From Eledone cirrhosa (lineage: Eukaryota), in assembly GCA_964016885.1 (NCBI GenBank), contig OZ024744.1, positions 113,646,001 to 113,710,000 on the forward strand: a stretch of 64,000 nt of DNA. Reading direction: 5' to 3'. Position numbers and translations under genes: made by a program. Shown here piece by piece: positions 2 to 4,340 of the stretch. The notes under the pieces are model-generated. The model worked only from the letters and a program-made list of their open reading frames with translations. It was not told the origin of the DNA and did no database searches. Position 1 is the first letter of the stretch, and each line of letters opens with the position of its first letter.

Positions 2-1660
2 TGCAAGTTGGTGTTGACACGCCTTCAAGACACAAGCAGGGAACCTATCGGGACCTACTGCTGAATTATGCTTGATTTCCTTTATTGCCGCCAAGACATC
101 AGGGGCGCCAAACGTTATGTCCGATAAGGTGTAATGGGGAGTAACATCGCCGATACAGCCCAGATCGGCCATATCAGGATTGCTGAAAACAGAGCAGTAT
201 TGTTTCTGCAGTATCTCACCCATGGTTTTACCATTGTCTTGAAGAGTGCCATTTTCATCAATTAGAGGGCCAACAGTAGAGCCAGTGATTTTGTGTTTTT
301 TTGCAAATGAAAAGAACACTTTGGGATTGAGTTTGATCTTCTCAATGGCCCAGGCCTCTTCAGCTCTTCTCTGATTGTTGATGAGGGACATTATGTTGTT
401 TTGGAGGTTATGTTTTTTAATCTCTAGTGATGAAATGGCAGTCAAGTTGATGTGTTGCTGCTGACAGTATTTCAGCTTGTTGATTTTTTTGTTCGTTCTC
501 TTAATTTTTCTGATGAGCGTTTTTCTATTTCTAGGGATTCTGCTCTTAGATTTGTTTATAGTTCTTAATGGGGTGTGTTTAGCACATATGTTTGTAACAG
601 TGTCCACAAATGTCTGCCAGGACTTTTTGATGTTAGTGGGTGTATGAGTGTGCGTGAAGGACCAGTCGACATGTGCAAGATCATGACTGATCGCTTCCCA
701 GTTTGCATTGTGGAAATCCATAGCGTCAAACGGATGGACAGGAGAGATGACATTGGGTTTGTATATTGGATGGTGGAATCTCAGATCACAGAGAACCATG
801 TCATGATCAGAGAGTAGAGTTTTCTCCACTGCAATATTGTGGATATTGTCAGTGTGATTTCTGAAAATTAAGTCTAGGACGTTTTTGTGGCACCTCGTTG
901 GTTCGAGCACCAGTTGGGATAGGAAGAAATCATCCATGAAGTCAAGAAGCGATTCCACAGCTTCCCTGTCAGAGGTTGAGGCAGAAGAACCTGGTGGCAG
1001 GCTGTTTGTGGACCAGTCAACTCCGGGGAGGTTGAAGTCCCCCATCATTAAGATGTTGTCAGGGTGACACTCTTGGATGAAACACTTTATGCTGTTGAGG
1101 CATTCCTTGAAGCATGGTACAGGCGTTTGGGGTGGCCTATAGAGCCCAACTACTAATAGGTTGTTGGTTTGACTGAATACAGTGACTGCTTCACAGTATC
1201 CATTAGTGAATATGTTCATAGCCTCTGTTGAGAAAGAATTATGGACATAAATGGCAGTTCCGCCCTTTCTTCTGCCAGCGCGATCAGCACGGATGGCTTT
1301 GAAATTTTTCACTTTCACCTCGGCTTCCAAGTGGAGGTTACTGAGATGGGTTTCAGTGAGGACGAAGAAAGGGATGTGGTTTGGATGGACATCAATCCAG
1401 TCCTCCAGGAATTTGATCTTCCATTTTTGAGTATTGGTGGAAGGGCTGATGCCTTGGGCGTTAAGCAAAAATGTAGAGGCGAGAGTGGATGGTTTTAATT
1501 GTTTTGGTGTGTTGTTAATTTGTTTGTTTGTTAATGGCAGCAATGGGAGTTTGTGCAGTGGGGTGATAGTGGAGGGTGGTGCTGGGTGATAGCTCGAATG
1601 TTTTTTTCCAGTTCTTTTGCCAGATTCATTATGGCTAAAAAAGAGGAAGAAGTTTCCTGT
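2..1660 (-). CDS. LINE ORF2 N-terminal part: apurinic/apyrimidinic-like endonuclease + linker up to the start of RT (partial; absent from the ORF track because it has no stop in the window)
   Basis: Manual translation gives FLLNAQG...FVLTETHL...RADRAGREKGGTAIYV...VVGLYRPP...MMGDFNLPGVDW...LEPTRCHKNVLDLIF...LSDHDMV (APE motifs). It continues IKLNPKVFFSFAKK...QYCSVFS...SAVGPDRFPACVLK (CR1-type pre-RT region). The frame opens after TAA at 1663-1661 and is still the same frame at position 2. Confidence 0.92.
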
Positions 1661-2289
1661 TTAGAAGACTGTTGGTGACTGTGGTAGTGGTTATTTTTAT
1701 GTAGGTTATGGTTTTTGTTTTTGCTTTTATTTTTAATTTTATTTTCATTTGTCCGACGGGTCCCCGGGAGATGGGTAAAGGGACAATCCCGGTCTAAACA
1801 CAATCTGTCTCGCAGGGAAAAACGGCAGATTTGTGGATTCCTTGTTTGAGTTATTGGTGGTTGTGTTGGTGTTAAATTAGAGTATGTATTATGGTGGTGG
1901 CTGTTTGTGGGGATAGATCGTTTTGTCCTAGGTAAATGGGTGAATTTGCAGCCACTATCCGTACATATTCTATAGCATAGAGAGTAGCGGCAAATGATGG
2001 GGTTTCGAGTGGGTGGGTATGTGGGTGTGTGTGTTGTGAGAGGTGTAGATGATGGTTTGGGTAGGATTTGACGACCTTTGTGGACTGTGGGAGGGAGAGT
2101 TCTTGTTCTGGTATTAGAAGGTAAATTCCTTGACATAGCAGTAGACAAAAATGTTGTAGTAGTAGTAGTAGTAGTAGTAGGCAGAGATGGAGATGTTGGC
2201 AGTGGTGATGATTGGACTGCTGGGCCAGAGAAAGGATGTGGCGTTTCATGCTGTGAGACAGAGGCTACTGGGGGGGTCAATAGTTTCAT
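1531..2289 (-). CDS. LINE ORF1 C-terminal part with two CCCH-type zinc fingers
   Basis: CRYSLCYRICTDSGCKFTH and CRFSLRDRLCLDRDCPFTH (C-x8-C-x4-C-x3-H) with Pro/Thr-rich linkers. Lies directly upstream of and overlapping ORF2. Confidence 0.8.
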   Translation of the reverse strand: MKLLTPPVASVSQHETPHPFSGPAVQSSPLPTSPSLPTTTTTTTTTFLSTAMSRNLPSNTRTRTLPPTVHKGRQILPKPSSTPLTTHTPTYPPTRNPIICRYSLCYRICTDSGCKFTHLPRTKRSIPTNSHHHNTYSNLTPTQPPITQTRNPQICRFSLRDRLCLDRDCPFTHLPGTRRTNENKIKNKSKNKNHNLHKNNHYHSHQQSSKQETSSSFLAIMNLAKELEKNIRAITQHHPPLSPHCTNSHCCH

Positions 2290-2683
2290 TTAGTAGATCG
2301 GCCATTGTTGATGAATCAAGGAGTGGTTCACACTGTTGTTGTCGTCGTTGTTGTTGTTGTTGCTGTTGTTGTTGTAGCTGTTGTTGTTGTTGCTGTTGTA
2401 GCTGCTGTTGTTGCTGCTGCTGCTGGACAGCATTCGAAGAGAAAACACACCGTAGTTTATCCAAATGTTTATTGATTAATTTAAAAGCAATTTCGATTTG
2501 CTTTAATTTATTTTGAATCTGTTGTTCAGATCGAGTTTTCAAAAATTGAACTGTACGTTTAGCAATGTCGTTCAGAGATGAAGCATGTATGTCTTCTGTT
2601 TGGGAAAGGCAATGCCATGTGTTTATTAGAATGTCGATTTCATTATCAGACCAGTTCTGTTTGGATTTTTGCTGGTTAGCCAT
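2246..2683 (-). CDS. LINE ORF1 N-terminal part: Myb/SANT-like (trihelix-type) domain + polyglutamine tract; probably one ORF with 1531-2289, split by a 1-nt indel in a C7 run
   Basis: WSDNEIDILINTW...RSEQQIQNKLKQIEIAFK fits the Myb/SANT-like W..E...L..W / R...Q...K pattern. Removing one base from the G run at 2270-2276 fuses ...NETIDPP to VASVSQ... of the downstream ORF. Confidence 0.65.
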   Translation of the reverse strand: MANQQKSKQNWSDNEIDILINTWHCLSQTEDIHASSLNDIAKRTVQFLKTRSEQQIQNKLKQIEIAFKLINKHLDKLRCVFSSNAVQQQQQQQQLQQQQQQQLQQQQQQQQQRRQQQCEPLLDSSTMADLLNETIDPPSSLCLTA

Positions 2684-2880
2684 TCTAGTTTTGAGTGTGT
2701 GTGTGTTTTAGTTAAGTATTTCAATATATATATATTTTTTTTAAATTTATTTTTGATTTATTTTTGTTTTTTGTTTTTCTTGTGTGTGAGTGAGAAGAGT
2801 ATATATATAAATATGAGTATATATATATATATGTATATTCTGGTTATTTGAAATTAATTAAGTTAATGAAAAGACGAAAG

Positions 2881-3040: not shown

Positions 3041-4264
3041 ATGCAGCTACTGCATCACTTGGATGACATTTTGAGAGCCTTGGGAGAGGGTTCCAACACT
3101 GATGTTATCTACCTTGATTTCAGCAAGGCCTTTGACAGGGTTGATCATAACATTCTACTGCGAAAGCTGTCCAATATTGGTGTCACTGGAAAGCTGCTGC
3201 AGTGGATCAAGTGCTTCCTGTCAAACAGAACCCAACATGTTGAAGTGGAAGGAGTCAAATCAAGCCCAGCCAAAGTCAGTAGTGGGGTCCCACAAGGCAC
3301 TGTGTTGGGCCCACTTCTCTTCATCATCTATATTAATGACATCACTGACATCATCAAACACAGCAATATTAAAATTTTCGCTGATGATTCCAAGCTCCAA
3401 AAGGTCATCAATGGCGTGGATGACCGGATAAGCCTTCAGTCAGACCTACTGGCTGTTACCCAATGGGCAGAAAAGAACAACATGTTACTGAACGAAGACA
3501 AATTCGAACTGATCCACTTTGGAAAAGAGGATGCTCTGAAACTCCCGTACTCCCTTCCCTCCGGGGAAACTCTCGTGGCATCTAACAACATCAGAGACTT
3601 GGGAGTAACCATGGACAGCAACATAAGCTGGACCACGCATATAAGCAGCAAAGTTGACATGGCCCGCAGAATGTGTTCCTGGATCCTCAGAACCTTCCAG
3701 TCGAGAGATTCCCGCACCATTATCCTTCTCTTCTCTACTTTCGCCCGACCACACCTTGAATACTGTTGTCCACTGAGGTCTCCCCACACGAAACAAAGTA
3801 TCATGAAACTTGAAGCTCCTCAAAGGGCAATCACGAAAAAGATAGATGGCATGTCAGACCTTGACTACTGGGGTCGATTAGAAAACCTGAAACTTTACTC
3901 ACTCCAACGTCGCCGTGAGCGTTATATTATCTGCATGATGTGGAAAATGTTCCATCATCACTGCCCAAATGATGTTGGCATCGCCTTCAAGATACACCCA
4001 AGGCTTGGGCCCCGTGCTATCCGTCCCATTCAAAAATCTAAATCGCAACTCATAACAACAATACGGCACAATTATTTCACCTCAATCGGCCCTGCTCTCT
4101 TCAACATCACACCAGGACACGTCAAAACAGAAACTGACCACACAAAATTCAAGAAGTCTTTGGACAAATTCCTCCAAGTAATCCCGGACAAACCACCCAC
4201 ACCCGGATATGTCTCCGCAAACAGTAATTCTGTTCTCGAATGGGCCATGGTGCCCAAATCCTGA
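3041..4264 (+). pseudogene. Reverse transcriptase fragment (LINE ORF2 C-terminal 407 aa, uninterrupted but 5'-truncated)
   Basis: [54 protein letters not shown] and [10 protein letters not shown] motifs. The ATG at 3041 is probably created by the microsatellite junction. Confidence 0.92.
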
Positions 4265-4340
4265 ATTGAAAGACTTCGCCAGGTGGTGCTATTAAGTTAG
4301 ACATGGCCTGGGCCAATACTGGCCAAAACATTTCAAAGTT
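3044..4340 (+). mobile_element. 5'-truncated CR1-group LINE (RT C-terminal part + 3'UTR) inserted in TA microsatellite
   Basis: RT ORF ends at 4264. The short 3'UTR has a GGCCA-ATAC-TGGCC stem-loop (4311-4324) followed by (TA)n. Microsatellite lies on both sides. Confidence 0.92.

Follow-up and report, generated by a model that had tools for sequence, protein, structure and literature searches.

Two questions are raised by a stretch of 64,000 nucleotides (nt) from Eledone cirrhosa (assembly GCA_964016885.1, contig OZ024744.1, positions 113,646,001 to 113,710,000 of the forward strand), which we call the window: can the modules of a first open reading frame (ORF1) steer a long interspersed nuclear element (LINE) that carries an apurinic-endonuclease (APE)-type enzyme, and how does a second open reading frame (ORF2) without a start codon get translated? 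Between positions 1531 and 2683, on the minus strand and with its ATG at 2683-2681, the window holds the ORF1 of such a LINE, in which a Myb-like head is followed by two CCCH fingers. Families with this head are confined to TA-type repeats and a candidate slip site is kept in three families; therefore both questions become testable. Taken as a whole, the locus is probably best explained as the ORF1 of a young LINE whose Myb-like head and CCCH fingers would be fused by a -1 slip to the ORF2 enzyme. An earlier note, written from the letters of this sequence, had drawn attention to the unusual make-up of the ORF1; what it observed holds, and what it made of the observation is supported in part. 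Positions given below are those of the window, on the minus strand unless stated otherwise.

The element and the modules of its ORF1

The region at 1531-2683 is the ORF1 of a LINE that is young and present in many copies; a single additional C breaks it here. A DNA search with positions 1531-2860 gave 1633 first-look candidates, and the 40 that were scored all match at 94-100% identity on many contigs; the dispersed copies have a common 3' end and variable 5' truncation, as a multi-copy element does and a gene does not. A single open ORF1 of 380-399 amino acids with both halves is present in at least 15 of 30 fetched loci, the spread in length arising because the Q-run varies between copies, so the ORF1 of about 384 residues that the earlier note had arrived at by repair has natural, unbroken counterparts. 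Matches to the N-terminal domain in the genome lie in open frames of at least 380 residues in 93 of 150 scored cases. That the element is a LINE, as had been proposed, is borne out by its many dispersed copies and by ORF2 (2..1660), which is read in the -1 frame relative to ORF1 and leaves the window at its left edge: it encodes an APE-type endonuclease at about 794-1474 (Exo_endo_phos_2, E 8e-14) and a reverse transcriptase (RT; RVT_1, E 2.1e-16), both above cut-off, the RT beginning after the endonuclease and continuing to the left of the window. The closest named relative of ORF2, at 51% identity, is from the octopod Argonauta hians; the relatives of ORF2 bear no clade names. A near-complete copy (L033) displays the whole plan: a 5' untranslated region (5'UTR) and ORF1 come first, ORF2 (about 1040 codons) overlaps ORF1, and the element closes with a short 3'UTR and a tail in which a 10-11-nt unit stands one to three times.

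In the window copy ORF1 falls into two frames because of the extra C alone. The break lies in a run of seven C at 2271-2277 (G7 on the plus strand); the usual length there is C6 (25 of 27 copies), and one copy has C5. The first frame piece, of 145 amino acids, runs from the initial Met to a premature stop at 2246 (2246..2683), and the second, of 252 amino acids, occupies 1531..2289 and ends at the ORF1 stop at 1531-1533. Full-length copies have about 520 nt of 5'UTR before the ATG, starting (AG)CAGTTGAGCAGTTGAAGTATAAGG or (AG)CAGTTGAGCAGTTGAAG; by comparison with them the window copy has lost about 330 nt and keeps a remnant at 2684..2880, which adjoins a (TATATATGTATG)n-type microsatellite at about 2881.

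The first piece reads MANQQKSKQNWSDNEIDILINTW...RSEQQIQNKLK and then enters the Q-rich run. Its head, placed by Pfam and an AlphaFold2 model as a Myb/SANT-like three-helix domain, spans ORF1 residues of about 9-78 (2450..2659); the Q-rich tract of about 33 residues follows at 2330..2428, and a short conserved motif, LLDSSTMADLLNETI, at 2279..2323 has LLNSSIIAELLND(T/S)I as its counterpart in an older family. The second piece opens with a P/S/T-rich linker containing a run of nine threonines (2149..2181) and continues with CCCH finger 1, CRYSLCYRICTDSGCKFTH (1936..1992), and finger 2, CRFSLRDRLCLDRDCPFTH at 1771-1827, which together with a GT(R)R motif covers 1753..1827. A basic N/K/H-rich tail with an isoelectric point of about 10 (1648..1752) leads into a C-terminal segment, SFLAIMNLAKELEKNIRAI, at 1588..1644, which is assumed to be helical and whose SFL...L... 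pattern is kept in relatives; the piece ends in ...HCCH. All of the features listed in the earlier note, namely the N-terminal segment, the Q-rich tract (there put at about 35 residues), the poly-threonine run and the two fingers, are found where it had placed them, on the minus strand, and region 2246-2683, whose absence from other copies would have spoken against the proposal, is present in all full-length copies.

The signature of the head, W...W followed by RS..Q...K...L, fits Myb_DNA-bind_4 (PF13837), a family with a Pfam gathering cut-off of 27 bits. Protein P0007, a relative found by phmmer at E 1.1e-13 and 51% identical over residues 7-93, scores 31.7 bits against this profile (E 2e-7), above the cut-off, and six of 11 alignment members match PF13837 at E 0.1 or better. 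A HMMER search over 1.84 billion representatives returned 12 proteins at E <=1e-3, of which four match the head and eight the C-terminal half. Because Pfam supports the assignment and the fold searches do not confirm it, the name Myb/SANT-like is given on sequence-family grounds, and as such it is quite likely right. PF13837 proteins include trihelix factors and the Myb-like proteins of PIF/Harbinger transposons. Myb_DNA-bind_4 is the best Pfam family for the head; its proteins are free-standing DNA binders or transposase partners, whereas here the head sits in a retrotransposon ORF1 together with CCCH fingers.

The pattern C-x8-C-x4-C-x3-H occurs twice in ORF1, against 6.6e-4 occurrences expected from the composition of the protein, and both fingers fit the CCCH spacing C-x7-8-C-x4-5-C-x3-H. 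Finger 2 with GT(R)R is the most conserved module, with nine invariant columns over nine sequences; over 13 sequences it shows no variation at P, C, S, C, H, G and R, and a further C and F are at least 90% conserved, in the column pattern P..C..S.....C....C.F.H..G(T).R, after which come the basic linker and the SFL...L segment. Finger 1 is kept in the older family, and an extra Cys inside it is private to the window copy, 15 of 15 intact copies having R there. The language-model neighbours are zf-CCCH clusters at 0.79-0.82, which we take as a lead only. Weighing against the assignment, a Pfam scan of ORF1 reported no CCCH model at cut-off (Nab2-like E 0.45, zf-C3H1 E 0.78); the relative P0016 reaches 19.3 bits with PF00642, for which the cut-off is 20.5. 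In three relatives of the C-terminal half the protein is longer and has additional CCCH fingers as well as a PHD-like finger.

Two further families in the same genome allow the modules to be followed over longer distances. An older, decayed family (L066-L077) has the same order of modules: among its 12 loci, head matches at about 50% identity occur in six, finger and tail matches at 33-50% in all 12 and ORF2 endonuclease matches at 43-68% in 10, and the Q run and the short motif before the linker are kept. Between the young and the older family the ratio of nonsynonymous to synonymous divergence (dN/dS, Nei-Gojobori) lies at 0.11-0.23 in the head and at 0.16-0.30 in the C-terminal half; synonymous sites are near saturation (proportion of synonymous differences, pS, 0.61-0.80). 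These values are low even though the old copies have decayed neutrally. Selection on the element has therefore retained head and body alike, and the architecture proposed from the window copy is maintained under purifying selection in a second, diverged family.

The third LINE family (L078-L085) has a PHD-headed ORF1 of 453 amino acids (L078/L079) and an APE-type ORF2 that is 29% identical to that of the window element and overlaps ORF1 in the -1 frame. The C-terminal halves of the Myb- and PHD-headed proteins are homologous, sharing a CCCH finger, GTxR, the basic linker and the SFL segment, so that the body is a shared LINE ORF1 module on which the head differs, Myb-like in the one and PHD-like in the other. 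This common body, the -1 overlap and a heptamer within it link the two kinds of element; the Myb-headed ones differ in having the three-helix head in place of the PHD-like finger, two CCCH fingers instead of three, and a polyglutamine run. Together the sister families offer a clean natural case of head swapping on a constant body. In three members of the PHD-headed family (L078, L079, L085) a degenerate, partly duplicated remnant of a Myb-like domain lies about 600-800 nt before the ORF1 ATG, which suggests that the head was replaced or that the 5' region recombined between families.

How does this compare with the ORF1 types already described? Papers that treat these types list ORF1s of the RRM/CCHC, coiled coil-RRM-C-terminal domain, PHD, esterase and zinc finger/leucine zipper types (PMC4120745, PMC13343379, PMC5203782). 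The nearest type is the PHD-type ORF1 (type III) of CR1/L2-lineage LINEs in the scheme of Khazina and Weichenrieder, as given by Metcalfe and Casane 2014 (PMC4120745), which likewise belongs to two-ORF LINEs that encode APE and RT and whose 3' tail is a short tandem repeat. In the available text of PMC4120745 and PMC5203782 the words Myb, SANT and CCCH do not occur, nor do Myb and CCCH in that of PMC13343379, and full-text literature searches found no LINE ORF1 with a Myb-like domain; the suggestion that the architecture is possibly undescribed agrees with its going unmentioned in the available parts of these three papers. A 2026 repeat annotation of Octopus vulgaris has 13 recently active CR1 families and, in the part available, does not discuss ORF1; CR1 is among the LINE groups reported there as active (PMC13282606, Table 1). 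The octopus RTE and Dong elements of PMC9115989 are not the window family. A Myb-like head on a CCCH-finger body would thus be an additional type of LINE ORF1.

We propose that the ORF1 protein is the RNA-packaging protein of the element. The CCCH fingers and the basic tail likely grip the RNA of the element, the Q tract and its flanking helices would likely serve self-association, and contact with DNA or chromatin is the predicted task of the Myb-like head.

Insertion beside TA repeats

The 3' ends of all three families consist of short tandem units: the young family has (ATTCAAAGTT)1-3, the PHD-headed one (ATGAA)n and the older one (ATCAAAGTT)n. With the sequence before the units, the end of the young family reads ...CATTTCAAAGTT(ATTCAAAGTT)0-2. 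A 3' end of a few copies of a short tandem unit, and not of poly(A), is typical of the CR1 clade of the Jockey superfamily.

What lies beyond these ends is uniform in the Myb-headed families. A TA-type repeat directly follows the 3' end in all 18 anchored copies of the young family (20 loci, two of them without an anchor) and in all six copies of the older family in which the end was found (10 fetched). At the other end, such a repeat stands directly before 8/8 5'-truncated copies and 11/13 full or near-full ones, the two exceptions being L004, which abuts an inverted copy of the same LINE, and L007, where a TA-rich stretch with an inverted tail takes its place. When the same test is applied to 40-nt tiles, 5.3% are positive in the window and 29.7% in the distal flanks of the loci, the latter share being high because the loci lie in large repeat fields. 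Both junctions are thus in the same type of repeat far above background, the pattern of a microsatellite-specific element. The window copy has an identical (TATATATGTATG)n variant on both sides, which argues that the repeat predates the insertion.

Similar behaviour is known from Kibi in (TC)n, Koshi in (TTC)n and crocodilian Tx1 families, in which both copy ends also lie in one type of microsatellite; these elements belong to the Tx1 clade, have other ORF1 types and owe their targeting, as reported, to the endonuclease, and the target here is of the TA type (PMC4494074). Our literature search found no paper on a TA-repeat-specific LINE.

The earlier note had suggested that the Myb-like head could help to direct insertion to TA microsatellites. 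The copies do lie in TA repeats; that the head aims them there remains a correlation. We favour a scheme in which the cut in the TA repeats is most likely set by the endonuclease together with pairing of the 3' end, and in which the head is a possible helper that would at most raise the local concentration on AT-rich DNA. In the PHD-headed family a TA repeat is found at the 3' junction in three of seven copies, and this contrast between the sites of Myb-headed and PHD-headed elements fits a role of the head in targeting. Two considerations weigh against such a role: it is a single phylogenetic contrast in which the endonucleases differ too, and the choice of target by LINEs is mainly assigned to the endonuclease (PMC4494074).

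The strongest competing explanation goes further and gives the head no part in target choice. The site would then be set by the APE endonuclease and by pairing between nicked TA repeats and the 3' end of the RNA (...AAAGUUAU), and the head would be a SANT-like contact to histones or other proteins, or a nuclear or chromatin tether of the ORF1 particle. We regard this as a real possibility, if short of an even chance. The head occupies the place that a PHD-like domain has in the relatives, and PHD fingers are histone readers; the PHD-headed relative itself still lies beside TA repeats in nearly half of its examined copies, and if no frameshift took place the ORF1 protein would be separate from the enzyme. 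The role commonly given to the LINE endonuclease, cited above, points the same way. Against this, the Myb-headed families are strictly in TA repeats (24/24 3' ends) and the PHD-headed one is not, the head would reach the enzyme through a slip at the conserved site, and R2 elements do recognise their target by a zinc finger-Myb module carried on the RT protein (PMC12203849).

Two observations on the arrangement of copies may be recorded here. A second, 5'-truncated copy of the same LINE family lies at 3050-4330 on the plus strand of the window, with the C-terminus of the RT, the 3'UTR and the tail CATTTCAAAGTT; it is in the opposite orientation to the ORF1-bearing copy and in the same TA/TACA microsatellite field. 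In L004 two copies of the family stand head to head, with inverted ORF2 sequence abutting a full-length 5' end.

The passage from ORF1 to ORF2

ORF2 overlaps ORF1 by about 130 nt in the -1 frame. Its frame opens at 1660, after a TAA at 1661-1663, and its first Met is at residue 147 or so, well inside the endonuclease domain, which leaves it with no usable AUG. Six codons past the opening of the -1 frame, at 1636-1642, ORF1 reads TCT TTT TTA (S-F-L) and so contains the heptamer U UUU UUA, a candidate -1 frameshift site: it fits the form X XXY YYZ in the upstream frame and lies inside the overlap. The heptamer is present in eight of the nine older-family copies in which the site was found (12 loci searched), and in 8/8 PHD-headed copies it occurs as AGT TTT TTA, two codons past the opening of the -1 frame. 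We infer from this arrangement that a -1 frameshift at the conserved U UUU UUA would fuse ORF1 to ORF2. The product, a minority one, would begin with the head and the Q run, continue through the fingers and the basic tail and pass from there to the endonuclease and RT; it would lack the C-terminal segment of ORF1. Fusion by frameshifting had been raised in the earlier note as a condition for targeting; the -1 position of ORF2, its want of a usable AUG and the heptamer kept in three families speak for it and make it plausible. A heptamer conserved among families with endonucleases of only 29% identity is a candidate programmed -1 frameshift in a LINE.

Other properties of the site tell against a programmed slip. 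A stimulatory RNA structure would be expected 5-9 nt downstream; the RNA there folds weakly, a 151-nt fold having a z score of -2.0 and a lone 4-bp hairpin immediately behind the heptamer. As the heptamer encodes the conserved S-F-L, part of its conservation is due to the protein. A second candidate heptamer, A AAA AAC at about 1601-1607, was set aside, since the older family does not keep it and often has G AAA AAC in its place. In L072 (1351-2226, minus strand), a copy of the older family, the ORF1 frame passes ...HCCH without a stop into sequence homologous to the start of ORF2 (..KKWKIQF), a junction that is probably due to an indel.

ORF2 may instead be made without any fusion, a possibility that we hold less likely than the slip. 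Reinitiation, or initiation at a non-AUG codon, has been proposed for mammalian L1; on this view the heptamer is kept only as code for S-F-L, and the head would never travel on the enzyme. Unconventional initiation is the favoured view for ORF2 of mammalian LINEs (PMC5009743), this review was the only literature on LINEs and frameshifting that our search found, and in the part available no LINE frameshift site is described. The lack of a strong downstream RNA structure agrees with an unfused ORF2. Yet the codons of the site are retained exactly, as TCT/AGT TTT TTA, in three families whose synonymous sites are otherwise saturated (pS 0.6-0.8), the -1 frame opens two to six codons before the heptamer in each family, and no AUG precedes the endonuclease core.

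R2, the fingers of which are of the C2H2 type, is the nearest working analogy to such a fusion, in function and not in membership, since the combination of zinc fingers and Myb on an RT polypeptide with a restriction-like endonuclease is not the one found here. The likeness lies in the pairing of zinc fingers and a Myb-like motif ahead of the enzyme of a LINE, and in insertion into one kind of repeated sequence (PMC12203849). R2, however, has one ORF, a restriction-like endonuclease and a ribosomal DNA target for which recognition by the zinc fingers and Myb has been shown (PMC12203849), whereas the window element has its modules in a separate ORF1, uses CCCH fingers and an APE-type endonuclease, and would need a frameshift to link the modules to the enzyme. 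One may go on to speculate that an APE-type LINE has here reinvented the strategy of R2, the frameshift fusion carrying a Myb-like head that reads TA repeats and confines the family to them, and an exchange of heads, Myb for PHD, retuning the landing sites; we consider this full version doubtful. Should the head indeed read DNA, insertion tools built on retrotransposons would have in it a compact targeting module worth their interest.

The head in structural comparisons, and minor observations

The name Myb/SANT-like has to be weighed with several results that do not bear it out. The first 95 residues of an intact copy (P0004) score 23.1 bits with Myb_DNA-bind_4 (E 9.7e-5) and the 145-residue piece of the window copy 21.4 bits (E 3.3e-4), both below the cut-off, and a whole-ORF1 Pfam scan did not report the family. 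A Foldseek search with the head models gave no row at E <=1e-3, the best being at E 0.5-1, and a profile of the N-terminal domain found nothing below E 0.13 among PDB sequences. Of the other searches, VIA-align on the 95-residue model was uninformative, returning only coiled-coil matches to the helix at 52-95; a word-indexed protein search with the whole ORF1 gave no matches, probably because polyglutamine words swamped it, and the N-terminal profile found none among the longer proteins of the word index. The proposal of a Myb/SANT head thus stands as far as the Pfam scores, above cut-off for a relative, and a three-helix model carry it; the fold comparison does not confirm it.

The models themselves are informative as to shape. 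From a shallow alignment, AlphaFold2 builds the 95-residue head with a predicted local distance difference test (pLDDT) value of 83.5 and helices at 13-28, 34-48 and 53-72/77, a fourth helix running into the Q tract; the trimmed head is a compact three-helix unit (pLDDT 81.7). The top Foldseek rows, none of them significant, are homeodomains at template-modelling (TM) scores of 0.5-0.64; the DNAJC2 SANT domain ranks tenth (E 2.4, TMq 0.51), and language-model neighbours of the head include Myb/SANT clusters at 0.83-0.84, again as a lead only.

Could the head be a helical oligomerisation module that continues into the polyglutamine run as a coiled coil, like the coiled coils of other ORF1s, and not a Myb/SANT domain at all? 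We think this improbable. The Pfam match covers profile positions 2-73 of 89, the relative passes the cut-off and more than half of the alignment members match PF13837, while the trimmed model is compact and has three helices, with DNA-binding three-helix domains as its top fold rows; moreover, oligomerisation and a Myb-like role are not mutually exclusive. That 2246-2683 is a fragment of a host gene, or of another element joined by chance, can be dismissed almost entirely, as the region is contiguous and in frame with the remainder of ORF1 in at least 15 of 30 copies and collinear with it in a second family; nothing but the broken frame of the window copy speaks for such an origin.

Some observations on other copies and on the surroundings complete the picture. 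Among the 150 scored head matches, seven lie in open frames of more than 500 residues (up to 985; for example G000:C5:79035871, C1:145625782 and C28:70179394), which could be read-through from upstream microsatellites or in-frame ORF1-ORF2 fusions made by indels. Just to the left of the window, L031 (2520-4965, plus strand) holds a fragment of a different LINE, an RT followed by a Cys/His finger (CSVCRKGVGRNSILCPKCKVWVHKRCSG), which adjoins the 3' end of the window element. Finally, the 5'UTR contains tandem segments in six copies (L011, L015, L016, L020, L021 and L023), with a unit of about 240 nt, while a unit of about 47 nt is repeated several times in L023; the 5' monomers of other LINEs are similar.

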